Of a DNA stretch of 64,000 nucleotides, positions 6,741 to 64,000 are shown piece after piece (the first letter of the stretch is position 1; every line of letters starts with the position of its first letter). This stretch comes from an uncultured bacterium (GTDB taxonomy: Bacteria; Zixibacteria; MSB-5A5; CAIYYT01). A program made the position numbers and the translations under genes. The notes beneath the pieces are model-generated. The model saw nothing but the letters and a program-made list of their open reading frames with translations, did no database searches and had not been told where the DNA came from. The DNA is taken from positions 64,973-128,972 of the forward strand of contig CAVSCK010000005.1 of assembly GCA_963726455.1 (NCBI GenBank). Direction: 5' to 3'.

Positions 6741-6781
6741 GGGGGACGTTAGTTCTAGAACCGGCGTCCCCCAGTTATTTT
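6741..6781 (+). terminator. rho-independent terminator
   Basis: GGGGGACG ... CGTCCCCC stem followed by AGTTATTTT. Confidence 0.6.
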
Positions 6782-6810
6782 GAGATACTACTTCAGGACC
6801 AGTAGTTGAT

Positions 6811-7908: not shown

Positions 7909-8552
7909 AAAAGGTCATCATTTTCACAGTTGCACCGATTGTATTTCTGGTCGGCGTCCTGGTTGTCTTCATGACGCTCACCAAAGAGAAACCGCCCGAG
8001 GGGATCAAGCTGGCAATTGCGGACACACTGGCTACCAACTTGCCCAAAGACGAGAAGGCAGCTCGTACGCAACTGCAGAATGCCGAGAAGGCGCTGGCCA
8101 AGTTGAAACCAGCGAAGCCCTACATCGTGATCGATACTCATGCCAATCGCATTTACTATCGCACGGAAGACTCTATTTATCTGGACGCGGTTTGTTCCAC
8201 GGGTTCCGGCAGCGAGTTGATTGATTCCGTTACCGGCCGCAAATGGATTTTCAATACGCCGCGCGGCGTGTTCAAGATACAGAACAAGATCAAGGATCCC
8301 TGGTGGCGCAAGCCGGACTGGGAATTTATCGAGACCGGTGAACCGATACCTAAGAGCGAATCCGACCGCATGGACGGCAATGTCATGGGCGACTTCGCGA
8401 TGGGTTTTGGTGACGGATTTTTCATTCACGGTACCATTTACGAAAGATTGCTGGGAATCAACGTGACGCACGGCTGCGTACGTCTCGGAACCGACGATCT
8501 CAAGAAGCTGGTGGACATGACGCCCATCGGCACATCGGTGTACATATTTTGA
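7905..8552 (+). CDS. L,D-transpeptidase (YkuD domain)
   Basis: ATG at 7905 overlaps the upstream stop (ATGA); N-terminal TM/signal; catalytic HGTIYERLLGINVTHGCVRL. Confidence 0.9.
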   Translation: MKKVIIFTVAPIVFLVGVLVVFMTLTKEKPPEGIKLAIADTLATNLPKDEKAARTQLQNAEKALAKLKPAKPYIVIDTHANRIYYRTEDSIYLDAVCSTGSGSELIDSVTGRKWIFNTPRGVFKIQNKIKDPWWRKPDWEFIETGEPIPKSESDRMDGNVMGDFAMGFGDGFFIHGTIYERLLGINVTHGCVRLGTDDLKKLVDMTPIGTSVYIF

Positions 8553-9247
8553 TGATGCGGCAAGTTCTGATGACTCTGAGAGGACAAGCGATTTCCGTTA
8601 TTGGGCTACTGGCATGCTCAGTGATGCTGTCATGTTCGGGCGGAACAGATGGAACCGGCACTCCGAAACAAGAGAAGTGGAGCCCTGACCAGGCGAAGCT
8701 CAATTACCAGGTGATGCAGGCCGAGTTGAAACTGGCGCAAACCAACAAGCCCTATCTGGTGCTGGACCTGAAACATGCCCGACTTGAAATCAAGCTGCAG
8801 GGAACCACCGTCTGGAATTATAAGATGACGCTGGAAAATACTGACGGTTCGGAACTGGAGAAATTCAGCGACCGGTTCATGGGCTCGGACGAGAAAGTAG
8901 TCCGGCCGGTATTGTACAAGTATTTGTTCGCGTCATCCAGCCGCACGCCCGACTCGATTCTGGCGATTGTCAGCGAAGCGACAACTTTCCCGCCGGAACT
9001 GTTGCAGCGCACAATCCCCGAGCGCTTTCAATTGAGGTGGAGTGATGATGCCGTGCTCGACATTCGCACTGACGTTGTCGGCAAGCCTGAATCGAAATGG
9101 AAAAATACGATAGTCGATATTCGCCAGGCAATTTCGCGTCCGCTTGGCGAGGCCTTCGTGGTCGTCAGGATGCCGAAGGATAATGCCATCACGCTTTATC
9201 GCGCCGCGACAATCGGCCTGCCAACGCTGATCTATCCCGCGTCCTGA
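8552..9247 (+). CDS. lipoprotein of unknown function (no YkuD catalytic His/Cys)
   Basis: Start overlaps the preceding stop; lipoprotein-type signal ...LLACSVMLSC; no Cys after the signal peptide, so not an active L,D-transpeptidase. Confidence 0.5.
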   Translation: MMRQVLMTLRGQAISVIGLLACSVMLSCSGGTDGTGTPKQEKWSPDQAKLNYQVMQAELKLAQTNKPYLVLDLKHARLEIKLQGTTVWNYKMTLENTDGSELEKFSDRFMGSDEKVVRPVLYKYLFASSSRTPDSILAIVSEATTFPPELLQRTIPERFQLRWSDDAVLDIRTDVVGKPESKWKNTIVDIRQAISRPLGEAFVVVRMPKDNAITLYRAATIGLPTLIYPAS

Positions 9248-9950: not shown

Positions 9951-12872
9951 TCAGGGTTTACAAGGCGCCGGTCCACCGCTGAAGATGTAGGAAATCAGAT
10001 AGACGGCATCTGAGATATCAACCGAATGATCACAGTTGGCGTCACCGGCATCCAGCGGATTCGGCGCCGCGCCACCGGAGAAGATATAGCCGATAAGAAA
10101 GACCGCATCGGAGATGTCGATCCCGCCGCTACCGTCAGCATCACCGGGCACGAACAGCGGTCCTGCCGTGTACAAGTGGGCTGCCGCCCAACGTTTGGCC
10201 TTGACCATGTTACCCTTCAAATCTGCGAGTGTGCCGTCACGCACGGTTGACAGGGCGCTGTAAATGACGATTGTATCCTGTGGCCCGATGTTCCGATTGT
10301 TGATGAAGGTCATGGTGGCAAACTGGTCGGTGGGATTTGTCTCGGGCAAATAACCCGGATTCTGCATCAAGCCGTAAATCTGCACGGCAACGAAGCCGTT
10401 GGTGCCATAGATGTACTGAGAGGAACTGGCCGTAAAGGCACCATAAGGCACTTTGCTAGTGTCAATCACGCCGTCGGCATCGCTAATGCCAAGCAGTGCC
10501 TGTCCCGCAAACCGGCGCGAGCCATCGATACAGTCGAAGCCGCCGCCCTGCTGATATATCATCTTCGTACCGGCATCGAAGCCCCCGACATTTTCCTGAG
10601 GATTGCCGCCGCAGTCCCAGTCGATGGCATCACCGATGCCGATTCCCGTGTGCACGAGGGTATCGAACGAGGTGATTTCGACTCGCTGGATGACGAAGTT
10701 GCAGCTATCGGGATGCTTGGGCGCATACCACGATTTCTTGATTGCAAGGAATTGATCGAGGGTGACGAAAGTGCCGCTCCGGAAGACCTCGTAAGCGCCT
10801 GAATCCGCAGTCGGCGCCATCGGTTCACCGTGGCGAGGCGTGCGGTAGCTATTGCCGTAATACATGTTCCAGTTCGCGGCATACCATGGGCCATTTATGT
10901 AAGTGACCAGCAGCGTGCCGTCCCAAAGATAGTTGTTGACGCAATCGCCCTGACCAAGGTAATCAAGGGCAGCTCCGTACGTGCCTGCCTTGCCGAAATT
11001 GCCCAGATTATTTACGATCAATTTGGTGCAGGATGTGGCGACGGTATCATAGACTTGCACGTTGAAGAGTGCACAGGCGTCGCCAAAGCCATCCCCGTCG
11101 GAATCGGTTTGATCGGGATTGTATACATCGGGACAGTTGTCTATCTGGCACGTTGCTGAAGGATAACCGGGATTACCGAAGCCGTCGGCGTCGGGATCAA
11201 CGCAGTTGTCGCAGGCATCGCCGATGTTGTCATGGTCTATGTCGGCCTGATCAGGATTAGCGTAACCCGGGCAGTTGTCGCAAGCATCACCGGCACCATC
11301 TGCGTCACCGTCGGCCTGGTCGGGATTGGCAACCGCGGGGCAGTTGTCGGTGGCATCGGAAAAGCCATCGCCGTCTTTGTCGAAATCGACGTAGGCGTAC
11401 AGGCGGTCGCCACGGATTGAATCAACTCTGACTGTGATGCCGGTGGGACCATAATAGCCGGCGCTGCTGGGAAATGTAGTCGGACTGAAGGTCGACTGAC
11501 CGGGAACGTTATCGGAGAAGAGCGCGCCTTTGCGGGATTCGTAGGGGTACCACCACTGGGCCGTATCGCTTACGTGTCCACCGGGATTGTTATGATAGTC
11601 ATACGCTGGGTTGTAGCCGGCATCCTCGACCGCGACCGTGTAATGAGGATATGTTGGCGTTCCGTCGTTGATGCGGAAATAATCGGCTTTGAGCGAGTCA
11701 TGGACATGCGTTATTAGCAGCCCGCGATCGAGCGGATCGCAGCCAAGCGACAGGTCGGGATAGAAGTAACAACTGAAATCCGAATCAAACTTGTCGAACT
11801 GTGCCGTCGACTGAGGATTGCGATACTCCAGCATGAAGTATTCCCCCTGCGCCATGTTGATCGGCAGAATGTAATAGGAGCTGTCCTTCGTCGTCTCGCA
11901 GTTGCGAATCATGAGTGATGGATATTCTCGCTGCTCCAACACAGTCGGTGTAATCCAACCGGCCTCTTTCTTGGTCCAGCCGCAGTGATGCGACGGGATG
12001 ATGGACTTGATCGAGAGAATCCCGTAACCGCCATAACCCATTGTGCACCAGTCATAGACCGGATGATCGTTGTCGTCGTTCGGAGTAAAGAAAGTGGAGA
12101 CGGTGAGCTTCTCATCGTAATCGTACAAGTCGGGAACTCCCACGTTGTGTGAGAGCTCATGGCAGAACACTCTGATATAGTTCAAGGTATCAACGCCGGT
12201 AAAGTCGTAGGGGCTGTATGGGTCATGCAAAGGGCAGGTTTCCGGGCAGGTATTCACGCGCGGAAAGCGTTTGCCGTCAAACGGTCCATAGCCGGTACCG
12301 GGTGAGCCGACCTGGGCATATGACCAGATGTCCATCGGATTGTGCGAGTCCTCCTGGCCTCTGCCGGCGTGAATAAATGTGACGGCATCGACATCGCCGT
12401 CGTTGTTGCCGTCAAATTGCGAATAGTCAATTACGGGATTAAGTTCCGCCAAGAGTGAACCAAAGTTGACATAGCCATTGTAGCTGCCTTCGGTGTGCCA
12501 CTCAATCACCTGACCCGTTACAGTCAATTGACCGTATGACGCCTCATGAAAGTAGTCCGCTACGGAACCCATCGGCAACACATTGCGCGAAAAATAGAGC
12601 GTATCGAAGGCGCCGCGAGTCCAGGTGTGGGGGCGGTTGGTCCAGTCGATCAGAATTACGAGTACCTTGAGCGTGTCGCCCGTGAAACGAAATTCGTCCA
12701 TCGACCTTATTTCATCCGGAGTCAGCGTGGACGGGGGCATTTTACCGAATTGCCTCTCCATCACTTCATTGGGTACGTCGAGGATTCGCACCTTCGACAT
12801 GTCGAAGGCGAAGGATGTAGTAGCGACCAATAGACAAGCCAAGGCCACCAGCCCATTAACCATAGATCTCAT
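9951..12872 (-). CDS. secreted M6-family (immune inhibitor A-like) zinc metalloprotease with thrombospondin type-3-like repeats and C-terminal dockerin-like tandem module
   Basis: Signal peptide from ATG 12872 (AGAGGT upstream); HExxH site [19 protein letters not shown]; repeated DxDGDGxxDxxDNCP calcium-binding units; C-terminus [25 protein letters not shown]...[31 protein letters not shown]. Confidence 0.8.
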
Positions 12873-12984
12873 AGGTACCTCTAATTTCAGTGTCGGCAAG
12901 AAGAATGCTGACAGATGTCGATTCTACAAACGGCTGTATAAAGCGCGATTCGGTTAGCTTAGTATACGCAATTTTGGCGAATTT

Positions 12985-40998: not shown

Positions 40999-42546
40999 TC
41001 ACGGCTGCACGCCCGTGTGACACTCGGAGCAATTCATTTCCTTCCAGGCATCGCTGATGTCAACCGGATGCGAAAACTCCAGACCGGCCTCGGTAGTTGC
41101 GACCTGCAAACTGTCGGGCCTTCCCTGCAGCAAGATGGCATGACACGAATTGCATTCACGCGTCACGATCAAACCATCCGAGCTTTTGTGCTTGCCGTCG
41201 TGGCAACGGAAACATCCCTTGTTAATGAAATGCCCAATGTTGTTCGGATACACTGCCCAGCGAGCTTTCATCGTCGGGAAAATATTCTTCGAATACGCTT
41301 CCTGTGCGGCCGCAATCGCCTTATCGATGTTTGCTTCATTCGCCGAGAAGTATGCCGCATCCCGCGCTTTATAGAAATCGTTGATCGTGCTGGCGATTCC
41401 GGCATAAGCGTCATCCTTGGTGTCGTATTCCTTCGCAATCGCTTCGACCGCAATTTTCTTGATCTCCGGCAGCTTCCGATCGATTCGTTCTTCCAGCAGC
41501 ATTTCGTCGATGGCATAATCCGGGGAATTAAAGATATGGCTCGGGCGGTTGTGGCAATCTACGCAGTCCATTCTCCGCTTGACGGCTTTGTTGATTTCAT
41601 CCTCAGTGAGCGGAGTCTCGGTATCCTGATAGACTGTCACTCGCTTGGTCCGCTTGTCGGTGATTCTCACCCAGGGAATATCCTGCCGCTTTTCGTCGCG
41701 CGGGATGTACTCGATGTCGACGCCGACATTCATATGCCAGTGAATTCCTGCGGTGTATCCCGGTTTGGGATCGCTGCCGCCGACCTTGACCAGCATATTG
41801 ATCGTCCAGGGCGTGCTCGTTTCGTCGTATTGGTACTGTTTGAATTCACGCTGCTGGGAACCGAATCTTTTCTCGGGCCAATGGCAGCGCTCGCACGTTT
41901 CCTGGGCCGGGCGCAGGTTGGTGATCGGCGTCGGAATCGGCCGCGGATATTTGTTCGCGACAACGGCGTAAACCTGATAAGCGCCCGACAATTTCGATTT
42001 GGCGTACCAACTGGCGCCATACCCGACATGGCACTCGGCGCACGACACCCGCGCATGCGGCGACTGCTGATAGGCCGTGTGTTCCGGTTCCATGACGGAG
42101 TGACAGGTCAGCCCGCAGAAGGCCACCGACTCCGTGTAATGATAGGCCTGATAACTTCCCACCGCGCTGATAACCAGAATCAACACTGTTCCCGACAAAA
42201 AGATGATCGTAGCGTTGCGGTGTCCGGTGCGGTTAAGATCCACCAGCGGCCACTTGGGAATCTCCTGCTCGCCGGTCTTCCGCCAACGCCGCCATTGCCG
42301 GTACATTCCTACCGGAATCAAAAACAATCCAAACACAAACCCGGCGGGTAATACCATGTAAACGAATATTCCGAGGTAGGTGTTCGGCTCCTCGGCGCCG
42401 GCGCTGATAATGAGCAGTACGACAATCGCCAGACCCACGATAACTGCGATGGTAGCGCCCAGGGCGCTCGTCCAGTTCTGAGTGAGGCGCGGTAGTTTAG
42501 GTCTTTCCATAGCTAATTCATTCTCTCCAAAAAATGCACCGACCAT
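40999..42546 (-). CDS. membrane-anchored multihaem c-type cytochrome (seven CxxCH motifs)
   Basis: Two N-terminal TM helices; haem sites CGLTCH, CAECH, CERCH, CVDCH, CFRCH, CNSCH, CSECH; alternative ATG at 42510. Confidence 0.85.
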   Translation of the reverse strand: MVGAFFGENELAMERPKLPRLTQNWTSALGATIAVIVGLAIVVLLIISAGAEEPNTYLGIFVYMVLPAGFVFGLFLIPVGMYRQWRRWRKTGEQEIPKWPLVDLNRTGHRNATIIFLSGTVLILVISAVGSYQAYHYTESVAFCGLTCHSVMEPEHTAYQQSPHARVSCAECHVGYGASWYAKSKLSGAYQVYAVVANKYPRPIPTPITNLRPAQETCERCHWPEKRFGSQQREFKQYQYDETSTPWTINMLVKVGGSDPKPGYTAGIHWHMNVGVDIEYIPRDEKRQDIPWVRITDKRTKRVTVYQDTETPLTEDEINKAVKRRMDCVDCHNRPSHIFNSPDYAIDEMLLEERIDRKLPEIKKIAVEAIAKEYDTKDDAYAGIASTINDFYKARDAAYFSANEANIDKAIAAAQEAYSKNIFPTMKARWAVYPNNIGHFINKGCFRCHDGKHKSSDGLIVTRECNSCHAILLQGRPDSLQVATTEAGLEFSHPVDISDAWKEMNCSECHTGVQP

Positions 42547-42733: not shown

Positions 42734-43723
42734 ATGAGAAGAGCTGTATTGATCGCGCTTGCCATCGTTTCGTTGTCGTTCATCTCATTTCTGACATCGC
42801 CGCAACCCGCCACTGCCGCCGCGATTGTCGCCGATCACACGACGGTCGCGAAGTTCGCGCAGATTCCGCAGGAATATTTCGACCAGATTCGCGCCAATTA
42901 CCGGTTCTTCTATGGCCACACATCTCACGGCAGCCAGATATTGACCGGAATCGGCATGTTGGCGTACGAGTATCCGCTGCAATGCGGCTCGCCGTCATTC
43001 TTCGAGTACGGCGACGATCTTGGCGCCGCCGGAGACATTACCTGGGTGCAGCCGACGCGCGATTTTCTCAATTCCAACCCGGATTACAATGTCGTGATGT
43101 GGTCATGGTGCGGCGGCGTATCCGACAATACTGAGGCCGGTATTAACAGTTATCTCAACGCGATGGAGCAACTCGAAAACGAATTTCCGAATGTCCGATT
43201 CGTATACATGACCGGCCATCTCGACGGCACCGGCGCCGCAGGAAACCTGTATGCGCGGAACAATCAGATTCGCCAGTGGTGTGCCGCAAACGGGAAAGTG
43301 CTTTTCGATTTTGCCGACATCGAGAGCTACGATCCGGATGGCGCGTATTACCCCGACGGCAGCGACGCCTGCGAATGGTGCTATACTTGGTGCGCTACCC
43401 ACACCTGCACTGACTGCGGAGGAAGTTGCGCGCATTCGCATTGTTTCAATTGCTATCAGAAGGCCAAGGCGTGGTGGTGGATTATGGCGCGTGTCGCCGG
43501 CTGGAACACGGATCCGGTTGGCTGCGGAGACGCCAACTCGGACGGTGGCATTGATATCAGTGACGCGGTATTCCTGATTGCCTACATCTTTTCAGGCGGC
43601 CCGGCGCCAAATCCGCTCAATTATGGCGATGCCAACTGCGACGCAGCCATTGACATCTCCGACGCGGTCTACCTGATAAGCTACATCTTCGCCGGCGGCC
43701 CTGCCCCTTGTGCAAGTTGCTAG
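42734..43723 (+). CDS. secreted protein with Cys-rich N-terminal domain of unknown function and C-terminal dockerin-like tandem module
   Basis: Signal peptide; Cys-rich stretch CEWCYTWCATHTCTDCGGSCAHSHCFNCY; C-terminus [27 protein letters not shown]...[32 protein letters not shown]. Confidence 0.6.
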   Translation: MRRAVLIALAIVSLSFISFLTSPQPATAAAIVADHTTVAKFAQIPQEYFDQIRANYRFFYGHTSHGSQILTGIGMLAYEYPLQCGSPSFFEYGDDLGAAGDITWVQPTRDFLNSNPDYNVVMWSWCGGVSDNTEAGINSYLNAMEQLENEFPNVRFVYMTGHLDGTGAAGNLYARNNQIRQWCAANGKVLFDFADIESYDPDGAYYPDGSDACEWCYTWCATHTCTDCGGSCAHSHCFNCYQKAKAWWWIMARVAGWNTDPVGCGDANSDGGIDISDAVFLIAYIFSGGPAPNPLNYGDANCDAAIDISDAVYLISYIFAGGPAPCASC

Positions 43724-46026: not shown

Positions 46027-47856
46027 TTACACCGGCGGGCAGGCAGCGCATGGCACCGGTCCCCCGCCAAATATGTATTGAATAAGGTACACCGCGTCCG
46101 CGATGTCGATCGACTTGTCACAGTTGGGATCCCCGGCTGTGGCTGTGACCGGCGCCGGTCCCCCCGCAAAAATGTAATTTATGAGGTAGACCACGTCGGC
46201 GATATCGACTCCACCGTCACCGTTGGCGTCGCCGCAAGTGAATTCAACCAGAGTAGTCCCCCACCAAGTGCCCCAGCGCGTGTCAGCAGGGTTCGGTCCA
46301 ACCGGTGTCGCCGCATATTCCTGAATCGTCCAGAAGCTGGTGCTATCCTTGGGGTCTACGACTGTGGCACTAAAATCCCCCCAGCGAACCTCAGTTCCGC
46401 CGAAGGTCTTGGTATAGATGCCCTCGCCGGCCTTGATCGTTGCCACGGTGCTCGTCGTCCCGATTGGATCGGTTGACCTGCGGCCGGTGTAAGCCGCTTC
46501 GACAAAGATGTTGGGATTCGAATGCGAGAACCCGAGAAAGACATCATTCCCGGAATTGACTGCAATACTGGGAAAGAACAGAAAGTCATTCGTGCCCATA
46601 TCAACCACGCCCGATTGCACAATCGGATTCGGTAGCGTCGCCGGATCGAGTTCATACCAGAAGACGGAAACGTGGTTGGGAGAATTCACCGGCAGGCCTG
46701 CACTGTGCGTGCACCAAATCCTGCCGTTACGGAAGACGGCATTGAGCATACGCGAATCGTTGGTTGACACCAGTGTGGCTGTGCCCTGTTGCTTGGCGTC
46801 TGGCTGATTATTCGAGAAATTATGTGCTACCGAGAATAACCCCGAGCCGCCAATCGTCGAACCAGGCACAGCGGCCCAAACCGGCGCCGGTCCCGTACCG
46901 GTGATTTGTGTCAATCTGAGGAGAGCTACTCCTCCCGAGGTGAATCCGGCATTATCGACCAGATATAGTGTCGGCTCATTACCGAATGTCTGACAGACGC
47001 GAAGCGCGAAACCTGAACCGACATTGCCGAAATTGTCTGATCCCACCGGAAAACTCGTGAAGGTCAACGGTCCCCCGGCAAGCGCCGTCGATTTTTCAAT
47101 TACCCACATCGACGTTCCGGAGAAAGTATTCCCCGTCACTTTGAACATGTTGGCCGTAATGGCAATCCAGGTTCCATTATACCCGATGTCCGGATAATCA
47201 GCCCAGCTAATGTGCGAGGTGTCCGCAGGTATGCGGTAGAATTTCCAGGTCCCCATCGGATTGGCGCTGTCGCTGACCGCCATCACCACAGCGGAATTCA
47301 CGGTTTGGAAGTCCGCGATGGACGACGCATACCAACGGTTGACGCTCGGGTCGTACAGAACGTGGGGATCACTAACATTGGTCGAACCCGTTGGCGACCA
47401 GAATGTCGGATAGGAGATTGTACTCAGGATATTCCCAAACTTGTCCTGCACCCTGATTTGTGAATTCAGCATCGTCATCACCCGGTTCAGACTTACGGCG
47501 CCGTGCGAATCCGGAGGGATCACGTGAAGGTTATCGGGCAAGGCCTGGAAATTTCTGACTACCGGCGGCACCTGCATCGGCGAAAGAAATTGCTCTGTCC
47601 CCAGACTCCCTGCACTACCCAACTTACCCAGTGGCCCACCAACCTCTCTCGGCGCCGGCATCAGCAATAGCGGTTTTACTTCCTGCACCTCCGCGGTCTT
47701 TGCCAGCGGTGCCCTCGCCTCCATGTTCTCCAAGTCCTGCCAGCTCACCTGAGCTACCGGATCAATCTGCATTTGTTGTCCGGAGACGCCAAAACTTGCC
47801 GCAGTCAGCAACAGTATTAGAACGAGCGTCGCCCGCGACGTTTGCCATATCGACAT
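46027..47856 (-). CDS. secreted protein of unknown function (paralog of 48164-50620) with C-terminal dockerin-like tandem module
   Basis: ATG 47856 with AAGGAG upstream; signal peptide; ~500-aa N-terminal domain shared with the next gene (...RWGDFSATVVDP...WGTWWGTT); C-terminus CGDANGDGGVDIADVVYLINYIFAGG...[32 protein letters not shown]. Confidence 0.6.
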   Translation of the reverse strand: MSIWQTSRATLVLILLLTAASFGVSGQQMQIDPVAQVSWQDLENMEARAPLAKTAEVQEVKPLLLMPAPREVGGPLGKLGSAGSLGTEQFLSPMQVPPVVRNFQALPDNLHVIPPDSHGAVSLNRVMTMLNSQIRVQDKFGNILSTISYPTFWSPTGSTNVSDPHVLYDPSVNRWYASSIADFQTVNSAVVMAVSDSANPMGTWKFYRIPADTSHISWADYPDIGYNGTWIAITANMFKVTGNTFSGTSMWVIEKSTALAGGPLTFTSFPVGSDNFGNVGSGFALRVCQTFGNEPTLYLVDNAGFTSGGVALLRLTQITGTGPAPVWAAVPGSTIGGSGLFSVAHNFSNNQPDAKQQGTATLVSTNDSRMLNAVFRNGRIWCTHSAGLPVNSPNHVSVFWYELDPATLPNPIVQSGVVDMGTNDFLFFPSIAVNSGNDVFLGFSHSNPNIFVEAAYTGRRSTDPIGTTSTVATIKAGEGIYTKTFGGTEVRWGDFSATVVDPKDSTSFWTIQEYAATPVGPNPADTRWGTWWGTTLVEFTCGDANGDGGVDIADVVYLINYIFAGGPAPVTATAGDPNCDKSIDIADAVYLIQYIFGGGPVPCAACPPV

Positions 47857-48086
47857 AAGCTTGTCTCCTTTCATCCCTTTGGACACTTCTCTTGTTATAA
47901 AGAAACCGATTCGCTCCCTCACAGTTCCCTGTGATCGGTTGTCATGAGTCTTTCTGGCTCTACGATTAAGGTACGCGGCACCCTGCCCCATTTGTGGCGT
48001 CTAATTGACCTCCATAAACACAAGTTCCTGGCGGAGTAAGCGGGCTGATTTCTGGGGGCAAGAGGCGATTCTTAAGGGTCTGCGCT

Positions 48087-48123
48087 CAAAAAGAATGCCG
48101 TCCGGAGAGACTCTCCGGACGGC
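48087..48123 (-). terminator. rho-independent terminator downstream of the 48164-50620 gene
   Basis: 13-bp palindromic stem GCCGTCCGGAGAG / CTCTCCGGACGGC; on the minus strand followed by ATTCTTTTTGA. Confidence 0.8.
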
Positions 48124-48163
48124 ATTACAGTCAATGCAGATGTAGGTTATCTAGTATCGTACC

Positions 48164-49020
48164 TCAACAGCCGGCACACGGAGCCGGACCGCCGGAGAAG
48201 ATGTACGCGATCAAGTAGACGGCGTCCGAGATGTCAATTGAATGATCACAGTTGGCATCTCCCGCCTCCACCGGATTTGGTGCCGGACCGCCAGAGAAAA
48301 TGTAGGCGATCAAATAGACAGCATCCGAAATGTCAACGCTGCCACTGCGATCGGCATCACCGCAAACGTAAGGCGGATCGACGACTCTAAGGTTGACCGC
48401 TACTGTGTCTGTCAACGCCGGAGCGCTGCCGTCCTGCAAAGCGATCGAGAAATAGAAGGTAGATTTATAGGTTGGAGTACCTGTGATCGTCCCGACCAGG
48501 CCATCATTAAACGTGAGGCCGTACGGCAAGTCTCCACCGACGAATGACCAGGTGTAGGGTGGAATGCCGCCCGAGTGCAGGAACTGGAATTCGTATGGCT
48601 TGTGATAATAGGCATCGGGCAGAGCTGGGTTCACATGCAGCAGTGGCTCGATGTGCAGGAATCCGTCGCATGCGTCGCCGACGCCGTCCGTATCCGAATC
48701 CCATTGATCATTGTTGCTCACCAGAGGACAATTGTCGCAGGCATCACCAAACAAGTCACCATCAGCGTTCACTTGCGACAAATTGGGCGTATATGGGCAA
48801 TTGTCGACTGCATTCAGAATGCCATCATTATCAATATCGGGATCGCAAACATCACCCAGACCGTCACCGTCAGTATCCTTTTGATTCGCGTTGGCCACTG
48901 TCGGACAGTTGTCGCAGACATCACCGATGCCGTCGTGGTCGGTGTCAAGCTGATTGGCATTTGCCGTCATCGGGCAGTTGTCCACGGTGTCTGCAACTCC
49001 GTCTCGATCCATATCTACCA
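48164..49020. repeat. copy A of a ~850-bp near-identical 3' coding module (TSP3 + Ig-like + dockerin-like)
   Basis: Long runs nearly identical to 51059-51920 when aligned by eye; encoded peptides differ only at scattered positions. Confidence 0.8.
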
Positions 49021-50620
49021 TAGTCGTTCCCCACCACGTGCCCCAACGGCTGTCATCGACGCCCGGACCGACTTTCATCCCCGCATATTCCTGAATGGTC
49101 CAGAAGCTCAGACTATCCATCGGATCTACCACGGTAGCGCTGTAGTCTCCCCAGCGCACGCGTGTGCCACCGAAATTCTTGGTGTAGGTCGACTCACCTA
49201 ATTTGAGCACCTTAATCGGCGCCATGGTGCCCAGCGGGTCGGATGCCTGGCGGCTGGTGTATGCCGCCTGCGCGTAGATCGTCGGATTGGAACGCGAAAA
49301 CCCAATCATCGCATCATCATTGGCATTGGCATTTATGCTCGGGTAGAACAGATATGTATTCGCGCCCTCATCCAGTACGCCCGATTGCACGATCGGATTC
49401 GGCATTGCCGTCGGGTCGAGTTGATACCAGAATACGGCATCGCGATTGGCTGAAGATACCGGCAAACCTGCGGCATGCGTGCACCAAATCTTGCCGTTGC
49501 GGAAGACTGCATTAATGATTCGCGAATCATTGGTTGTGATCTTGGTCGTGGTACCAAGCTGGGACGCATTGAGCATTGAGCCGTTGAAATTATTGGCAAC
49601 CGCGAACAGCCCGGATTCGGCAATAGTGGATCCCGCTGTCGCGTTCCAGACCGGCGCCGGTCCGGTGCCGGTTATCTCAGTTATGCGCAGTTGATGGATA
49701 CTGGAGATCGTGATATTGTTATTGTCAACCACATACAACTTCGGCTCTGAACCGTAGGTCTGACATACGCGCAGAGTCCAACCGTTGAATCCACCGAAGA
49801 TTCCTGATCCCACCGGAAAATAAGTGACTGTCAGTGGGCCGCCCGAAAGCGCTGTGGATTTGTCGACCACCCACATCGCTGGTCCCGCCTGAGATCCGCC
49901 GGCAACCGGAAACATATTTGCAGTCAGCGCGATCCAGGTGTCGTTATAGCCAATGTCCGGATAGTCCGCCCAGTTGATGTTGCTCATGTCTGCCTTGATC
50001 GTGAAGTACTTCCAGACGCCCATTGGATTACCATTGTCCGTCACCGCCAACAGCACTTCTGAACTCGCCGACTCGTAATTGGCGATGGAGGTGGCGTAAA
50101 ACCGCCCTGTGCCCGGATCGAACAGTACGCGCGGATCGCTTAGCGTTGAGGCCCCGACCGGCGCCCAGAATGCTCCGTACGAAATCGTCGAGAGAACCGT
50201 GCCCATGCGATTTTGCACCCGCACTTCGGAATTCAGGAATGTCATGATGTATGAAACACCGACGCCGCCGTCGGTATCGGGAGGAATAACAGCGCCGTTA
50301 TCCGGAATCGCCTGGAAACTTCTCACCACCGTGGGCGCTTGCACATTCTGGCTTACACCTGCGACACTAAGCGCATCCAGAATGTTGTTTTGACCGGTCG
50401 GTTTTGCTATCTCTGTTTCTGCAGGCATCAGCATCAGCGGCGGCACTCTGTGAACCTGCTTTTGCGCCGGCGTCATATTCTGGTCTATGGCCATCAGGTC
50501 ATTCCAGCTCACCGATGCAGCAGGTGACAGAGTCACTCTCTGACCGGTCACAGCCAATAGTGATGTGATTGAGGTCAACGAAAGAAACAGAAATACAACG
50601 AACATTCGCTTTGCACTCAT
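48164..50620 (-). CDS. secreted protein: unknown N-terminal domain (paralog of 46027-47856), thrombospondin type-3-like repeats, Ig-like domain, dockerin-like tandem module
   Basis: Signal peptide [23 protein letters not shown]; TSP3-like DxDxDGxGDxCDNCP units; Ig-like region [21 protein letters not shown]; C-terminus ...[32 protein letters not shown]. Confidence 0.65.
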
Positions 50621-50689: not shown

Positions 50690-50850
50690 GGCTGCCGGAA
50701 TGGTTTGCGGGCAGACATTGGCGCACGGTAATACTACGCTTGCCAATCAATTATGAAGAACGACATCGTAGGCCTATTCTTGTAAGTAACTAGCACTTAA
50801 GATATACATTTTGTCTTGTTTGTCAAGCCGGATGTCAGCGAAGTGCAGGA
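50690..50850 (-). promoter_or_regulatory. conserved upstream element, copy 1 (shared with 53545-53705)
   Basis: About 150 nt of non-coding sequence upstream of the 50620 start is largely conserved with the region upstream of the 53452 start; contains TTGACA on the sense strand and an inverted repeat ATTGGC-N19-GCCAAT (50716-50746). Confidence 0.5.
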
Positions 50851-50971: not shown

Positions 50972-51005
50972 CTAAAAAAGCACCGTCAGGAACTCTTCCT
51001 GACGG
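50972..51005 (-). terminator. rho-independent terminator downstream of the 51059-53452 gene
   Basis: CCGTCAGGAA / TTCCTGACGG stem; on the minus strand followed by a T-run. Confidence 0.7.
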
Positions 51006-51058
51006 CACAAATTGCGAAAGCCGCGCACAAGCGTGCGCCGCATGCTGGCTCTATCTTA

Positions 51059-51920
51059 TCAGCACCCCGCACATGGCGCCGCGCCACCACTGAAGATGTA
51101 TTGGATCAAGTACACCGCATCCGAGATGTCGGCTGTATGATCGCAGTTGGCGTCTCCCGCCTCTGCCGGGTTGGGCGCCGGACCACCGGCGAAGATGTAA
51201 GCTATCAAATAGACAGCGTCCGAGATGTCGACGCTGCCGCTGTGGTCGGCATCCCCGCAAACGTAAGGCGGATCGACGACTGAAAGAGTGAGTGAGACCG
51301 TGTCTGTCAACGCCGGGACGCTGCCGTCCTGCAGAGCAATCGAGAAATAGAAAGTAGATTTATAGGTCGGTGTACCGGTGATCGTACCGGTCAAACCATC
51401 ATTAAACGTGAGGCCGTATGGCAAATCCCCGCCTACAAAAGTCCAGTTATATGGGGGCGTGCCGCCGGCGTGCAGAAACTGGTAGGTATATGGCTTGTGG
51501 TAGTAGGCATTGGATAATATAGGATGCAGGTTCAGTTCGGGCTCGATGTGTACTGAGTCGTCGCACCAGTCGCCGAGTCCGTCCGCATTTGAGTCCCACT
51601 GATCGTTGTTCGCCAAAAGCGGGCAATTATCGCAGGCGTCGCCGAGGCTATCGGCATCGCTGTTCTCCTGACCCGGATTGACGGCGTACTTGCAATTGTC
51701 GGCGGCGTTAGGCAATCCGTCGTTGTCAATATCGGGATCGCATGCATCGCCCAGGCCGTCGCCGTCGACGTCGTTCTGAGTCGCATTGACCACAGTCGGG
51801 CAGTTGTCACAGGCATCGCCGATACCGTCATTATCGGTATCGAGCTGGTTGCTGTTGGCCAGACTCGGGCAATTGTCAACCGTATCAATAACCCCGTCGG
51901 CATCGAAATCGCCCACAACG
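51059..51920. repeat. copy B of the ~850-bp near-identical 3' coding module
   Basis: See copy A at 48164-49020. Confidence 0.8.
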
Positions 51921-53452
51921 CCGACCTTCAAATTGGCAATCATTGTTGAGGCGCATGACGACGAGAGGACTTTAACTTCCACCAAAGTTGGCGAACCGGT
52001 GTAGGAATTGCTGTTCGGAGCACTGGCCCCGTTAAATGTCTTGTTAATCCATAGATCGCCGGCTTGCGTGGGCGGATTGTTGTCCGCACACTCGATATCG
52101 ACCCAGCGGTGAGTATCGTTCGAGTTATTGTTCTGGGTGTCATCGATATGCCAGATCGCGATTCCGCATCCGGGAAGGTAGGCATCAAAGCCAACTTGTT
52201 GCCGATTCTCTACGAGAAAGTATTGAGTACTGGGCAATACGCTGCTTCTGAGCTTAAAGCATGACTGATTGGTTTCCGCTTGATCGAGATGAACGCCGTA
52301 GGCATTGACTGACGGCTGAGTCACCGGAAGCCAACCTTTCCGGATCTTACACCAGGCACTCATGTGCGCCGGAGATGCACCGTTCTGGCCCGGACCATTC
52401 CAACTTCCTCCCGCCATCAAACACCAGTTGCCGATTCCATCGCTGCTGTAATCAGTGTCATAAAGATCGGGAAGTCCGATGGCATGCCCGTATTCGTGCG
52501 CGAAGACGCCGATCGTTGAACGTACGCCCGACCAGACCATTTCCGGTTCCATGGTGTAACCACTGACCGTCTTGCCGCTCGCCGAGATGGAGGGGGAAAG
52601 ATGACCGGAATGTGACCAGGGATAATTGGTATAACCAGCTTCGGCGCCCGGCCCGACGTGTACGATAAACAGACCGTCTACGATGCCGTCATTGTTGTTA
52701 TCGAATGGCGCAAAATCGACTCCCGCGTCGCGGGCTGCGGTCACGGCCTCGGCGGCCAATATGGCGGCCCGCCCCATCCCGGAGGCATAGCCATAGTAGT
52801 TTCGATTCTGGCTCGCGGTGTAAAATCCTACGACCGTGCCCGTCACCGTGAAGGCATCGTATGATGTCTCCAGATAGAATTTGTGCAAGGAACCCAAATC
52901 GAAATTCGCGCCGTTGAATAACGAGTCGAAATCGCTTGGCGGGTAAGTATTGCCTTCATCCGGATACTTGATGAGAATCACCAGCACGTTGTTTGTCGTC
53001 GTTCTGGTCGCGCGCTGAGTCAGAGTCGGATCATCCGGGAACGAATAAAAGGACGGATCAGGTCTTCCGACCGTACTGGTGGCTGCCAGACTAAGCGGCA
53101 TCTGGGCCAAAAAACTTCTCTCGGCGCCGGATCGCCTGTCCGCCGCGGTGGCTCTGAAATTCGATGCCTTGAGGTTTCCGTCTGCATCCAGAACGGCATA
53201 GCAATACCAGCCGTCAGTATCCCGGGCGACAGTGTATCCGTCCTCGGTAATCATACGTCCGTTTCTTTCATCACCAATGACCCTAAGAGTGAGCTTTGAT
53301 ACTCCGTCCGGCTGGGTCACTTCAAACGCCCGATCGGGATTTGCCGGGACAGACAGCGCAGGTTGAGCAATCAAGACCACGCAAAAGGCCATCATCGTCA
53401 GCAAGTGCCCGAGCATCGGCCAGGCGTGAGCAATAGCGCTTCTCTGCTTCAT
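51059..53452 (-). CDS. secreted M6-family zinc metalloprotease with TSP3-like repeats, Ig-like domain and dockerin-like tandem module
   Basis: Signal peptide; HExxH site [19 protein letters not shown]; C-terminal ~280 aa almost identical to those of 48164-50620; ends ...[32 protein letters not shown]. Confidence 0.8.
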
Positions 53453-53544: not shown

Positions 53545-53705
53545 CTCCCGGAATGGCTTGGTCGGACGGACATTGGCGACCAATTATGCTATGCCTGCCA
53601 ATCAATTATGAGGAACGACACAGTAGGTACATTCTCGCAAGTATCTGGTACTTAAGATATACATTTTGCTCCATTTGTCAAGGCAGATGTAAGCGAAACG
53701 CCCGT
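53545..53705 (-). promoter_or_regulatory. conserved upstream element, copy 2
   Basis: Aligns by eye with 50690-50850, including ATTGGC-N19-GCCAAT at 53572-53602 and the TTGACA-containing block. Confidence 0.5.
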
Positions 53706-53810: not shown

Positions 53811-56800
53811 CTAACACCCTGCACACGGCGCCGGTCCACCGGCGAAGATGTACTGTATCAGATAGACCACGTCTGAGATGTCCACCGCCTGATCGCAATT
53901 GGCATCACCGGCCGCAATCGGATTCGGCGCTTGCCCGCCGGCGAAAATATACTGAATGAGAAAGACAGCATCCGAGATATCAATTGCCCCGTCACCGTTG
54001 GCATCACCGCAAAGGTAAGTCGGCACAGTTTCGTAGATGGTCAGGAACGTATCAGCAGGAATCGACGTAAATACCCGAACGGTATCAGAAGGCCAGCGAG
54101 CAATCAGAGAGTCGATCATCGTGTTCGACCCCAGTCCGAATGCGGCTATCGGCGGGCTCTGATTCCATCCCCCGGAAACCGTCGTGATTTCGCGAATCTG
54201 CTGCTTGCCTCCAGCAACGATGCGGACTCGCGCTCCGATGCTATTCTTGTTGGATGTCGTGCCGACAAGTTTCGCCTGCAGCCAATGATTATTGTCGCCA
54301 ATCTCGTTTCGAAGGAGCCGACTGCGGCAATTGTATCCGTACATATTCGACAGGTAAATGTCCAGATCGCCGTCGCGATCATAATCGGCCCAGACGCCAC
54401 CCCGACCGGTGCAACCCAAATCGGTAAGAGGATTGATCAGGTTTCCGGTATAGGCCACGGCAAAGTTACCGCTCCCGTCGTTGCGGAAGAGCTTGTTGGC
54501 TTCATTGGAACCGTTCGTTACGAAAAGATCCAAATCACCATCATTGTCGTAATCGCCCCACGCACAGCCCTGCGTGTAATCCCAAGCAGTCATCACGGCG
54601 GGCGTCACGTCCGTGAAGACTCCGTTCCCATCGTTACGAAACAACTTGTCGCTCAGCCCCGACCAGTAGACGGCAACAAACAGGTCGAGATCTCCGTCGT
54701 TGTCATAGTCGCCCCAATCCGCTGCGAAACTATGGGAGGCAATCGCCAGAGCTGGAGGTGTGACGTCGGTAAAGGAGCCGCCGTCATTGCGCAACAGTCT
54801 GTTCGGACCGTTGAAGTTTACGATGAATACGTCGGGGTCATTGTCGTTATCATAGTCGGCCCAAGTCGACATATGAGTACTAAACGTATCTCCCAGGGGG
54901 CCGCTAGTAGCGTCAACGAATGTTCCAGCGCCGTCGTTACGAAACAGCTTATTCGCTGAAGTCAGTTGCGATAGATACAGATCGAGGTCACCGTCCGTGT
55001 CGTAGTCGACCCAGGCGGCACCACTGCCATTGTTAGCATCATTTAGAGGCGCGCTGGAAACATCTGTAAAGGCGCCTCCGCCATCGTTGCGATAAAGCTT
55101 GTTAGCTCGGCTATCGTTGCGGGAGACATAGATGTCGACATCTCCGTCGTTGTCGTAGTCGCCCCAGACTCCGACTATTCCAGTCGCCGCAGCGCCCATG
55201 CTATTTGGAGTAACCTCCACGAAAGAGCCGGCATCATTCCTGAACAGATGGCTGGAGTCCGGGTCGTACATCTGCGTCAGTAGAAGATCGAAATCGTTAT
55301 CATTATCGTAATCCGCCCATGCTGCCGACGAGATTGAGCCGTATCGTGACAAAACTCTGGGAGTGACGTCGTTCCATTCTGGCGGTGCTGAAATGAATGG
55401 AAACGCGGCCAGCAAATTCGGTCTGCCGCCGATGTTCCCAGCCGGAGGCGTGACTTGTGCCGTAGCGGTATTTTTGAGAACCGTGCGCAGAATCGCTGGA
55501 GTGAGGGTCCCGCCCAGTCCGCCGACTCCCTTCCAGCGGCCCACACAGCACGCCACTGCGCCGGCAACAATTGGAGATGCGCTTGACGTGCCCGCGAAGA
55601 CGCTGGTGTATGCGTAATCAGTGCCATCGGCATTGTACAGATCTCCATAACCCGTGGTCACGACGTTCTCGCCCCAACCTTGAAGATCATAGCGAGTGCC
55701 GTAGCTGGCAAACGACAGTCGCTGCAGGTCGCCTTCCACATACGTGCCACCCGGATAAACACCACTTGCTCCGACAACAATTGCTCCCGATCCATTTGGA
55801 TGCCAGTTGAGCATGTCAGTATCATAGGCGCCATTTCCGCCGGCTTCGACCACATGAATCCCGTTTGTTACCGCGTTTACAATGGCGGTGAAGACGGGAT
55901 TCCATGACTGATTGTTCACGTCGCCCCACCATTCTATGGGGATATAAGACCCTCCGCCGTAGTCCCATTGCTGTTCGAGCAGGATAATATCGCCGGCATT
56001 CAGGCTGGCAGTCGCCAGCGCAATGGCGCCAGCAACATTCCAGCTCGGCGTGGGACTTCCATAGTAAGTGCCGCATGTCTTGAGATTCGCACCGTAGCAG
56101 ATTCCGGTAGTGCCCCAGCCGTTATTGTCCGCGACCATAACTCCGATGACGGCAGTCCCATGATCGTCGTCGCTGAAAGGATCGACGACATTGCTGTTTA
56201 TCTGCGACCCCACTACCTTACTGATGTCTGCATGATTGTAGTTCCAGCTATATTCCAGGTCACAGACCGTGACCCCGGAACCGTTACCCCCTGTTTGCGT
56301 CCACGCGTATTGCGCATCAATCCCCACCGGAGCTGAACTCGCCGGACGCATGTATCGCTGGCCGGTGTCATAAGGGGGCGGTATCATCGGCAGCATCATT
56401 GGTTTGGGAACCGGACGCGCCCACATGATTTCGGGTAGAAACTCGAGATCGCGGCAGAGCCCCCAAAGATCATGGCCTTTGCCAAGGCGTAATCGGTAGA
56501 TGTTGTTGAGATTGTACACCGGCTGTCCCGAGTTCTGCTCGCCTACGGCTTGCATCTCATCGAGCTTCTCCTCCGAAACATTGCACGTGCGCTGCCATTC
56601 GACCGGCCCCACCGCGGCAAGCGTGCTCAACACGGAACTCAGGGACCTACCAGTAATATCCACCGGCACTCCCAGTCGTAATCTTACAGTCAGGTATGGC
56701 TCGAAGATCACCTCGATAAGGTCATCTTCATGTCCATATTCTCCGACGGCCTGCCTGCTCACCGACTGCGGCCCGACCGCCAGTGCCTCCGGATCCACGG

Positions 56801-56909
56801 CGATACTATTTCCGAAAGTCGGGGTGATAATCACGAGCCCTACCAGGAACGCCGCCACCAGTGAGCAGACGTGCGGAACTGTTGACCTGCAATTCACAAT
56901 AACCTCCAT
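53811..56909 (-). CDS. secreted S8 subtilisin-like serine protease with FG-GAP/VCBS repeats, ASPIC/UnbV-like domain and dockerin-like tandem module
   Basis: Signal peptide from ATG 56909 (alternative start 57035); S8 triad regions (VTVCDLEYSW, DDDHGTAVIG, GTSSASPIVAG); multiple WGDYDNDGDLDLFV repeats; C-terminus [26 protein letters not shown]...[32 protein letters not shown]. Confidence 0.85.
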   Translation of the reverse strand: MEVIVNCRSTVPHVCSLVAAFLVGLVIITPTFGNSIAVDPEALAVGPQSVSRQAVGEYGHEDDLIEVIFEPYLTVRLRLGVPVDITGRSLSSVLSTLAAVGPVEWQRTCNVSEEKLDEMQAVGEQNSGQPVYNLNNIYRLRLGKGHDLWGLCRDLEFLPEIMWARPVPKPMMLPMIPPPYDTGQRYMRPASSAPVGIDAQYAWTQTGGNGSGVTVCDLEYSWNYNHADISKVVGSQINSNVVDPFSDDDHGTAVIGVMVADNNGWGTTGICYGANLKTCGTYYGSPTPSWNVAGAIALATASLNAGDIILLEQQWDYGGGSYIPIEWWGDVNNQSWNPVFTAIVNAVTNGIHVVEAGGNGAYDTDMLNWHPNGSGAIVVGASGVYPGGTYVEGDLQRLSFASYGTRYDLQGWGENVVTTGYGDLYNADGTDYAYTSVFAGTSSASPIVAGAVACCVGRWKGVGGLGGTLTPAILRTVLKNTATAQVTPPAGNIGGRPNLLAAFPFISAPPEWNDVTPRVLSRYGSISSAAWADYDNDNDFDLLLTQMYDPDSSHLFRNDAGSFVEVTPNSMGAAATGIVGVWGDYDNDGDVDIYVSRNDSRANKLYRNDGGGAFTDVSSAPLNDANNGSGAAWVDYDTDGDLDLYLSQLTSANKLFRNDGAGTFVDATSGPLGDTFSTHMSTWADYDNDNDPDVFIVNFNGPNRLLRNDGGSFTDVTPPALAIASHSFAADWGDYDNDGDLDLFVAVYWSGLSDKLFRNDGNGVFTDVTPAVMTAWDYTQGCAWGDYDNDGDLDLFVTNGSNEANKLFRNDGSGNFAVAYTGNLINPLTDLGCTGRGGVWADYDRDGDLDIYLSNMYGYNCRSRLLRNEIGDNNHWLQAKLVGTTSNKNSIGARVRIVAGGKQQIREITTVSGGWNQSPPIAAFGLGSNTMIDSLIARWPSDTVRVFTSIPADTFLTIYETVPTYLCGDANGDGAIDISDAVFLIQYIFAGGQAPNPIAAGDANCDQAVDISDVVYLIQYIFAGGPAPCAGC

Positions 56910-57113
56910 GCAAATAGACAGTATCACGGTCAATCCGTCCGGCAGACGGCTCGATCGCGTGCCCCTGTAGTAGTTGTTGTCAGCAGAGATGTCGTTGTCT
57001 ATGTTAAAGATACTGCCCTTACGGAGAAATGTCAATTGGAAAAGTGGAGTCGCGGGTACTGATTGCCGGTTCTTCTAACCGTTGATTGGGCATTCGGTTG
57101 CGCTCATAGGCAC

Positions 57114-62340: not shown

Positions 62341-63330
62341 TTACTTCAACAGTAACATCTTCTTAGTTTCGGTGAAGTCTCCTGATGACATGCGATAGAG
62401 GTAGACACCGGAGGCCACCGAAGAACCATTCTGGTCGTTGCCGTCCCATTCGACGCGTTTGTAGCCGGCTTTCTCGTAATCGTCAAGCAAAGTCCTGACC
62501 TTCTGGCCAAGCATGTTGAACACTTCAACTTTCACATTGCCGGATTTGGGAATCGCAAACTGAATTGTGGTCGAAGGGTTGAACGGATTGGGCACATTCT
62601 GGCTCAACTCATACTTCGTCGGAAGATTCAAATCAGCATTGCCTTCCACCGGTAACGCGATGTCGCATGGAGGAGTGAACTGCTTGCACATGGCGAATTT
62701 CGGGGTAGACTTCTTTGTCACTGTGTTGGACGCGGAGACGCCCGGTACTGGGGGCAAAGTCCAGGGAAAGATATTGGTCTCAATGAACGGGCCGGCAGGC
62801 GGATACAAAGAGACTGAGTCCAGCCGTACCACTTGCCGAACGGTGTCAATCATCTTGATGATTATACTGCCAAGATATTGTCCGGTATCACCGGTACAGG
62901 CCGGAATAGGGGATTCACCCGAAAAGTCAGCCCAACCGAACAAGAGTGAGTCTCCCGCCGCCGACACCTTTAATTGCATGGAGCCGCCGAACAGGATGGC
63001 ATTATTCTTTTTGAAGTTCTTGCTGAACTTGAGTTGTTGACCGTTCTGCCTCACTCCGAAATTGAACCCGCCAACGGGGTAATCGTTAAACAGATAGACC
63101 GGTACGTAGAAAGAATCGCCCTTGGAAGTCGGCGAAAACGTTATACAGACGGGGCATCCAATTCGAAGCGTATCGCAAATACCCAGATCCAACTCCTTCA
63201 AGTTGGTGCTGTCGGCGTCCGCGATGCCTCCGTGTACCACATAGCACGTGTCGACCGCGTAGACGCTGGCGCCCGGCACCACCGCCGCAACCGATAGCAC
63301 GAATAGCACTAGCAAAACCTTCAACTTCAT
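62341..63330 (-). CDS. secreted protein with candidate cohesin-like domain and T9SS C-terminal sorting domain
   Basis: ATG 63330 with GGAGG upstream; signal peptide; cohesin-like segments GDSFYVPVYLFNDYPVGGFNFGV and LFGWADFSGESPIPACTGDTGQYLGSIIIKM; C-terminus NVPNPFNPSTTIQFAIP...GVYLYRMSSGDFTETKKMLLLK. Confidence 0.55.
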   Translation of the reverse strand: MKLKVLLVLFVLSVAAVVPGASVYAVDTCYVVHGGIADADSTNLKELDLGICDTLRIGCPVCITFSPTSKGDSFYVPVYLFNDYPVGGFNFGVRQNGQQLKFSKNFKKNNAILFGGSMQLKVSAAGDSLLFGWADFSGESPIPACTGDTGQYLGSIIIKMIDTVRQVVRLDSVSLYPPAGPFIETNIFPWTLPPVPGVSASNTVTKKSTPKFAMCKQFTPPCDIALPVEGNADLNLPTKYELSQNVPNPFNPSTTIQFAIPKSGNVKVEVFNMLGQKVRTLLDDYEKAGYKRVEWDGNDQNGSSVASGVYLYRMSSGDFTETKKMLLLK

Positions 63331-63518
63331 TTTACCTCCTATGTAGGGAAACATATTCCATTCACTGCCTGACCTTCGCATTCCAATCTCTCCTTCCTAC
63401 CGCGTCAAGGATAACAGCGTTATACCTTAACTTTCTCCACTACCCACGAACGCAAAGTATTCCGAATATATATCCGTTTCCGAAACTCCAGTCAACAATT
63501 TTTTCAAAAATAATTGCC

Positions 63519-64000
63519 TCAGCAACCCGCGCATGGCGCCGGACCGCCGGAGAAAATGTACGATATCAGATAAACAGCATCGGAAATATCAATCGAGCCG
63601 TCGCAGTTCACCTCTCCAGTGCTATATGGCGAAGGCGCCGGGCCGCCGGAGAAGATATAGGCGATCAAATAGACGGCGTCGGAAATATCAACCCCGCCAT
63701 CTCCGTTAGCGTCGCCGCAGACTGCGGGACTGCCGACGGTGACGCACGCACCCTGAAACGCCCCCTGATAAGTAAATAAACCGTGCGTGAGCGACTGCGT
63801 GAAGCTGGAATAAACCGTGTCGCGAATGCAGATTTTCTGGTTTTTCAACGCATTAGTAACCTGGAATCTGACTTTGCAAATCACGCCGCTGCCTGCCGCC
63901 AGAGGCGCGTGTCCCCCGCCCATGTTCGCTCTCAGGTCAAGGGTGGCTACCTTGCCGCCGTTGTAGATGTTGCTGAAGATCGCCTGCTCAAAGCCGGCGC
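63519..64000 (-). CDS. C-terminal part of a protein with cohesin-like segment followed by dockerin-like tandem module (5' end beyond window)
   Basis: Frame stays open to the window end (...FEQAIFSNIYNGGKVATLDLRANMGGGHAPLAAGSGVICKVRFQVTNALKNQKICIRDTV...); ends [26 protein letters not shown]...[32 protein letters not shown]. Confidence 0.5.
   Translation of the reverse strand, partial: AGFEQAIFSNIYNGGKVATLDLRANMGGGHAPLAAGSGVICKVRFQVTNALKNQKICIRDTVYSSFTQSLTHGLFTYQGAFQGACVTVGSPAVCGDANGDGGVDISDAVYLIAYIFSGGPAPSPYSTGEVNCDGSIDISDAVYLISYIFSGGPAPCAGC

Follow-up and report, generated by a model that had tools for sequence, protein, structure and literature searches.

Genes B and C, neighbors on the minus strand of the 64-kb stretch of DNA analyzed here (hereafter, the window), ended in the same C-terminal cassette behind unrelated cores. 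The alignments indicated that this cassette is a mosaic, of which the 3′-terminal 450–500 nt, comprising He_PIG and dockerin, were evidently derived from one copy in both genes. The two cassettes resembled each other much more than chance would produce, although the resemblance was an old one. Comparison of silent sites indicated that an intragenomic exchange between B and C happened at a depth of dS above 1, after which purifying selection acted on both copies as they diverged. As the best explanation as a whole, in which we place somewhat better than even confidence, B and C were regarded as genes of a Zixibacteria-like bacterium that are transcribed separately and encode secreted proteins. 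The finding is ordinary module shuffling or occasional gene conversion, which are well known, and adds a new example from a little-studied phylum. Its meaning is that, in two lineages belonging to this uncultured phylum, a non-catalytic C-terminal cassette provides the homology for tail swaps between unrelated secreted enzymes, and probably for core swaps too.

Domain composition and similarity of the two cassettes

Gene B (48164–50620, minus strand) encoded 818 aa, and gene C (51059–53452, minus strand) encoded 797 aa; both proteins had signal-peptide-like N-termini. In the Pfam search, TSP_3, He_PIG, and Dockerin_1 exceeded the gathering score in B and C, and Peptidase_M6 did so in C alone. 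Based on Pfam and the mutual alignment, the cassette spanned 48164–49015 in B (aa 536–818 and the stop codon) and 51059–51910 in C (aa 515–797 and the stop codon), both on the minus strand. It consisted of TSP3 repeats (B, 48662–49015; C, 51557–51910), a linker with He_PIG (B, 48368–48661; C, 51263–51556), and a dockerin (B, 48167–48367; C, 51062–51262). The TSP3 repeats (PF02412) formed three stretches in each protein and scored 99.7 bits in B (E = 6.8e-29) and 63.9 bits in C (E = 1e-17) against a cut-off of 25. The corresponding scores were 29.2 bits (E = 1.3e-06) and 30.7 bits (E = 4.3e-07) against 24 for He_PIG (PF05345), and 28.1 bits (E = 2.3e-06) and 24.1 bits (E = 4.3e-05) against 22.9 for the type I dockerin (PF00404). 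The dockerin was built of two tandem segments of ~22 residues, each with a D/N-rich calcium-binding loop followed by a helix ([25 protein letters not shown] and [25 protein letters not shown]).

TSP3 repeats are calcium-binding and serve as an extended linker, the Ig-like He_PIG domain acts as a spacer or in adhesion, and the binding of type I dockerins to cohesins depends on calcium. From what is known of these families, the cassette likely serves for the tethering or display of secreted enzymes at the cell surface or on a scaffold or partner protein. A profile search found no cohesin domain in the 33 window proteins scanned. Searched against the PDB with phmmer, the TSP3 part matched COMP (3fby; E = 3e-55) and thrombospondin-2 (E = 3e-40). 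As in COMP and thrombospondin, the motif DxDxDGxxDxxDNCP occurred ~4 times in the cassette, whereas the cassette stands in a bacterial extracellular linker context. Against NCBIfam, the MtsC and Omp28-related selenoprotein models fell far below their cut-offs for the cassette.

The cores of the two proteins were different. In C, the signal peptide and the catalytic region of an M6 (InhA-like) metalloprotease occupied 51911–53452 (minus strand). The M6 domain (PF05547) scored 83.5 bits against a cut-off of 22 (E = 2e-23) and was absent from B, the NCBIfam model TIGR03296 scored 207.8 bits against 110.8, and the HExxH zinc motif could be read in the translation as HEYGHAIG. The original prediction had described C as an M6 metalloprotease sharing a 3′ module of TSP3-like, Ig-like, and dockerin parts with B; the profile searches, together with self-blastn for the module and its position, agreed with this description. 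In B, the signal peptide and N-terminal domain (49016–50620, minus strand; the first ~535 aa) matched no Pfam or NCBIfam model. An AlphaFold model of this domain, built with 46 homologues, was all-beta with a pLDDT of 88.8, and the domain was confidently predicted to be a seven-bladed beta-propeller of an uncharacterized family. Trp, Asp, and Arg were invariant at many of its positions, and the family comprised 305 members at E ≤ 1e-20 among 8000 candidates scored. Foldseek matches were loose only, to sialidase and GH43 propellers. Assignment as a sialidase-like or GH43-like catalytic propeller, for which we looked for a close structural match with conserved catalytic residues, was rejected.

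Self-blastn of the window paired 48164–49003 with 51059–51898 in a match of 842 nt (75.3% identity, 204 mismatches, E = 4e-166); the first 300 nt of the match reached 82%, and the longest exact run was 27 nt. At the protein level, aa 536–818 of B and aa 515–797 of C aligned without gaps over 283 aa at 78% identity, and nucleotide identity by codon position was 84/86/54%. By the Nei–Gojobori method (NG86), pS was 0.65 (dS about 1.5) and pN was 0.14 over the whole cassette. The TSP3 part was 68–70% identical in nucleotides with a pS of 0.77, which is at saturation by this method; He_PIG was 79% identical with a pS of 0.53, and the dockerin was 80% identical with a pS of 0.62–0.64. Among 220 conserved degenerate codons in the whole cassette, 43% differed, compared with ~60% expected at saturation when synonymous codons are drawn independently from local codon usage. 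In the TSP3 half, 49% differed against the expected 60%.

The original prediction had called the two 3′ ends almost identical at the nucleotide level and the exchange recent, and these values contradicted both statements: silent sites of the B–C cassettes were more diverged than those of orthologues taken from two separate related species (pS of 0.41–0.46; 82% identical in DNA). Protein-level likeness over saturated synonymous sites, which had been named as the pattern that would speak against the prediction, was closely approached in the TSP3 half and nearly so in the rest. The self-comparison it proposed thus recovered the pairing of the two segments but not their near-identity. A recent segmental duplication or an assembly-collapsing repeat, for which we looked for stretches of hundreds of bases with at least ~95% identity, was rejected on the same figures. 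Recent recombination with near-identical 3′ ends, or a duplication that is an artefact of assembly, was accordingly considered extremely improbable. Nothing in the window spoke for either, although such an account fits a related species described below; against it stood the number of mismatches, the short exact runs, and the low third-position identity, as well as the open frames and independent substitutions of both copies and the source contig record of 667,840 bp. The first reading is corrected in that neither recent recombination nor an assembly risk applies at the B–C locus.

The window contained seven dockerin-ended genes (9951–12899, 42734–43723, 46027–47991, 48164–50620, 51059–53452, 53811–57035, and 63519–64000), whose dockerins all scored 24–37 bits in Pfam and were 67–89% identical to one another in amino acids. 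The B–C dockerin pair was the most similar of the 21 pairs, as had been predicted, but the margin was small (80% nucleotide identity vs 62–76% for the others) rather than large, and its pS fell within the range of the other pairs (0.53–0.96). Six of the seven genes stopped within one to three residues of a conserved P-C-x-x-C or P-C-K-P, and the gene at 46027–47991 (gene A) stopped seven residues after it; this terminal cysteine motif lies outside the Pfam dockerin model.

Distribution and mosaic ancestry of the cassette

In the protein database, C, B, and A of the window corresponded to P0121, P0241, and P0245 on one 667,840-bp contig, and the named organisms among the matches belonged to candidate division Zixibacteria. 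The full cassette was present in orthologues of C (P0122–P0125 and P0131–P0134; catalytic part 65–71% identical) and in orthologues of B (P0242–P0248; 54–71% identical), and therefore both fusions are older than the divergence of all sampled relatives. The M6 orthologues P0126–P0129 contained TSP3 and dockerin without He_PIG, and more distant homologues of the B and C cores ended in T9SS sorting domains. The whole cassette was also found at 50–63% identity on other N-terminal domains (Peptidase_C39_2, C10, M28, M43, PKD, and LVIVD) by a word-indexed search, in which TSP3 words were dominant and the matches listed were all shorter than 500 aa, B and C being absent from them. A contig scan with B detected only distant N-domain relatives at 31–54% identity; the cassette was absent from all of them, and no genome close to this one was found. 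An exhaustive representative search with the He_PIG–dockerin tail yielded more than 52,000 matching representatives at E ≤ 0.001; as evidence on nearest neighbors it was uninformative and was set aside, since giant multi-He_PIG proteins at 31–46% identity dominated the result.

In a neighbor-joining (NJ) tree of 16 cassettes (281 columns, 500 bootstraps), the cassettes were not sorted by gene type, and those of B and C in the window were sisters with 100% bootstrap support. Their amino acid identity was 78%, compared with 62–71% for either against any orthologue cassette. In sub-domain trees, all of which were NJ trees with 67–118 columns each, the B+C grouping received 94–96% support from He_PIG and 85–86% from the dockerin, compared with 6–7% from the TSP3 repeats. 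In the TSP3 half, B and C were no closer to each other than to the cassettes of relatives, and their nearest neighbors were mixed. In sliding windows, B–C did not become the best pair until about residue 686 of B, placing the switch point at the protein level at about aa 671–686 of B. The tract with within-genome ancestry shared by the two genes accordingly extended over 48167–48610 in B (aa 671–818) and 51062–51505 in C (aa 650–797), both on the minus strand, and included most of He_PIG and the dockerin. The recombination of a C-terminal cassette between unlike enzymes, as originally predicted, was thus supported by the sister relationship of the tails, but the exchange covered only ~450–500 nt and not 850.

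The last 148 codons of B and C were identical at 80.4% of nucleotides and 87% of amino acids. Within this tail, 39% of conserved degenerate codons differed between B and C, compared with 55–65% in eight between-genome comparisons (Fisher p = 0.0002–0.03). Since the tails were sisters and their silent codons were closer to each other than those between genomes, they descend from a single copy that postdates the divergence from all sampled relatives. The silent divergence was lower in the tail than in the TSP3 half, but this difference by itself fell short of significance (Fisher p of 0.17; scan permutation p of 0.087). A younger core at aa 696–760 of B (711–755), where the sliding-window pS was 0.34–0.44, is not claimed in view of the same permutation scan. 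Within this genome, the search for a third, closer cassette was confined to the 64-kb window of the 667-kb contig.

Vertical divergence from an ancient duplication, with the likeness maintained by co-evolution with, or convergence on, a shared genome-specific cohesin-like partner, would account for these data without any exchange, and we regard it as improbable. Dockerins are short and highly constrained and were alike across all seven window copies, and the B+C grouping was missing from the TSP3 part, as such a history would allow. However, B and C resembled each other at the silent codons of the tail more closely than any between-genome pair did, the strongest B+C signal resided in He_PIG rather than in the dockerin, and the non-coding flanks of B and C were also homologous (see below). 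Moreover, the dockerin of gene D, the upstream neighbor of C, followed its orthologue rather than its own genome: it was closest to the dockerin of that orthologue in another genome (84%), which argues against genome-wide homogenization of dockerins.

A second case of close cassettes on the two gene families was found in a relative, here called species X. Contig L007 carried an M6 gene (P0124), and contig L008 (ENA ERZ27247850, k141_2555172) carried a B-type gene (P0243; 1860–4316). These contigs were 98.3% identical over 1098 nt, corresponding to the cassette and 252 nt downstream, and all 19 mismatches were inside the first 250 nt. Downstream of the cassette, L008 matched the LptC–LptB genes of the M6 locus, in contrast to the L33 gene and MFS transporter gene that follow B-type genes in other relatives. 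Contig L009, from the same sample as L008, contained an M6 gene followed by LptC, LptB, and RpoN, and matched L008 at 87.5% over 4.2 kb, with the match beginning exactly at the 5′ edge of the cassette. P0361, the second member of the P0243 cluster, had the same N-domain with its own cassette: P0243 was the same as P0361 over residues 1–631 and the same as P0124 over residues 622–818. Judging from these identities, L008 is a clean single-crossover mosaic of B-type and M6-type genes. Misassembly is its most likely origin, probably caused by two cassettes that are ~90% identical, and true recombination a less likely one.

The chimeric contig and the identical flanks suggested a single species of origin for P0361 and P0124, in which the two genes are at unlinked loci. 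Their cassettes were 89% identical (96% in He_PIG) and grouped with 100% bootstrap support, and no upstream block was shared by the pair. Exchange through the cassette is therefore recurrent in these two gene families. The identity of the pair also bears on the assembly hazard mentioned in the original prediction, which does not apply to the window, at 75–80% identity and without a run above 27 nt, but is real in this relative. In relatives with ~90% identical copies, the cassette yields chimeric public metagenome contigs, from which false gene fusions and false synteny are possible.

Gene order and flanking sequences at the B–C locus

To the 3′ side of B, gene A (46027–47991, minus strand) was a 654-aa ORF with Dockerin_1 as its sole Pfam domain and an N-terminal part without an assigned family. 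Because the database version of A is annotated with 609 aa, translation probably begins at the ATG near 47856 and not at the first codon of the 654-aa ORF. The N-terminal parts of A and B were about 67% identical in nucleotides and 56% in amino acids, and A is a tandem paralogue of the B propeller that is fused straight to the dockerin, with neither TSP3 nor He_PIG. To the 5′ side of C, gene D (53811–57035, minus strand; 1074 aa) encoded Peptidase_S8 (subtilase), FG-GAP repeats, UnbV_ASPIC, and Dockerin_1 according to Pfam.

Contig L011 of a relative was syntenic with the window, sharing GH35, HtrA, sigma-70, the D orthologue, and a B-type gene. In L011, the D orthologue was directly upstream of the B-type gene; there was no M6 gene between the D and B orthologues, and A was absent. 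M6 orthologues were found in several other gene contexts, and C therefore represents an insertion at the B locus. In the window, A was followed by L33 (45709–45894) and an MFS gene, as after B-type genes in relatives. As a separate feature of the two loci, genes for YkuD L,D-transpeptidases and an fn3/T9SS-tail protein were located ~4–9 kb from the B-type gene in L011 (16374–20819) and ~40 kb from B in the window (3265–9247), which indicates a rearrangement or an insertion of ~35 kb.

The homology between B and C extended outside the coding regions. Upstream blocks of ~150 nt (B, 50700–50850; C, 53555–53705; both minus strand) were 78–79% identical over 135–154 nt. Located ~70–90 nt before the start codons, they comprised identical promoter-like sites, TTGACA-16-TATCTT, at 50826–50799 and 53681–53654, and a leader of about 100 nt. 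This block was not found before orthologues or other window genes. The leader had no Rfam match and folded no better than shuffled sequences (z-scores of −0.7 and −0.9). Downstream, strong hairpins resembling intrinsic terminators followed B (48094–48126, minus strand; 15-bp stem and T run) and C (50980–51008, minus strand; 13-bp stem and T run). These were alignable with a score of 29 against a shuffle maximum of 26 (0/500 shuffles), with compensatory change in the stems (GTCCGG/CCGGAC vs GTCAGG/CCTGAC), and the B–C homology therefore reaches beyond the stop codons. The offsets between homologous blocks were 2855 nt for the promoter, 2882 nt for the terminator, and 2895 nt for the cassette.

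With the cassette present on both gene families before the relatives diverged and the tails exchanged long ago, we consider it probable that C originated through a duplicated B unit followed by core replacement. Most economically, a tandem duplication would have copied the whole B unit from the promoter/leader to the terminator, as one also did for A. An M6 core that brought its own TSP3 repeats would then have taken the place of the propeller in the upstream copy, with a 3′ crossover inside the shared cassette near the border between TSP3 and He_PIG. This route carries several caveats. The illegitimate 5′ junction that it calls for has left no visible trace. The TSP3 part gives no indication of whether the C repeats arrived with the M6 core because its nearest neighbors are mixed. 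The promoter/leader block, at 79% identity (distance ~0.25), has changed much less than the tail has at its silent sites, and therefore it has been either constrained or copied later.

Gene conversion alone provides a less likely account, in which an M6 gene with a complete cassette moved beside B, the tail was later overwritten non-reciprocally (B to C or C to B), and the likeness of the promoter blocks and terminators resulted from separate events. The 5′ limit of the tract was recognizable near aa 671–686, and the unlinked B-type and M6-type cassettes of species X clearly recombine or convert without a shared upstream block, both of which agree with conversion. It requires, however, three independent copyings, of promoter/leader, tail, and terminator, split by non-homologous sequence, and the three blocks sit at nearly equal offsets. 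Duplication followed by core replacement thus remains our preferred route to C.

Comparison with known systems and the dockerin genes of the window

In cellulosome-forming Clostridia and in non-cellulosomal dockerin proteins, C-terminal type I dockerins occur on secreted enzymes with unrelated cores. The proteins described here resemble cellulosomal enzymes in having two calcium-binding segments at the C-terminus and in the number of such genes per genome (seven in the window alone). They differ in their cargo, which consists of proteases and a propeller protein and not mainly of glycoside hydrolases, and in the packaging of the dockerin with TSP3 and He_PIG in copies that end in P-C-x-x-C or similar. 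Unlike in cellulosomal systems, the organism also has T9SS-sorted proteins. M6 peptidases of the immune inhibitor A family that bear T9SS C-terminal sorting domains occur in Bacteroidota and relatives. The core of C resembles these proteins in being an M6 domain with HExxH, and its homologues are secreted and multidomain; many of them end in Por_Secre_tail or FlgD_ig, whereas those of the Zixibacteria-like clade end in TSP3, with or without He_PIG, and dockerin.

Concerted evolution by ectopic gene conversion is known for duplicated tuf genes and for repeat families of surface proteins. The present case is similar in that a paralogous tract is closer within a genome than between orthologues, independently in two lineages, but it differs in that homogenization is rare and old (dS above 1) instead of ongoing, and is confined to a sub-domain tract of otherwise unrelated genes. 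A full-text literature search for Zixibacteria and dockerin found no paper, and a search for gene conversion and dockerin found nothing relevant.

On a broader and more tentative reading, which we hold to be rather doubtful, the cassette could be a lineage-wide, interchangeable surface-display tag and recombination handle of Zixibacteria-like bacteria. It would be carried mainly by proteases (M6, with C39-like, C10, M28, and M43 together with non-protease modules among the database hits) and would take the place of the T9SS domain, with swaps of cores and repeated homogenization of tails. If this were true, the cassette would define an undescribed, non-cellulosomal, protease-centered dockerin system.

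Two proteins of the window (3265–5451 and 62341–63381) carried T9SS sorting domains (Por_Secre_tail and FlgD_ig), and the presence of these domains together with dockerin tails in the window indicates that the organism uses both tags. Homologues of the B propeller and the M6 core in Bacteroidota and Ignavibacteria had the T9SS tag in place of the cassette. Just outside the dockerin cluster, a gene at 40999–42546 encoded a multihaem cytochrome with a NapC/NirT-like N-terminus and c7/c3-type haem domains.
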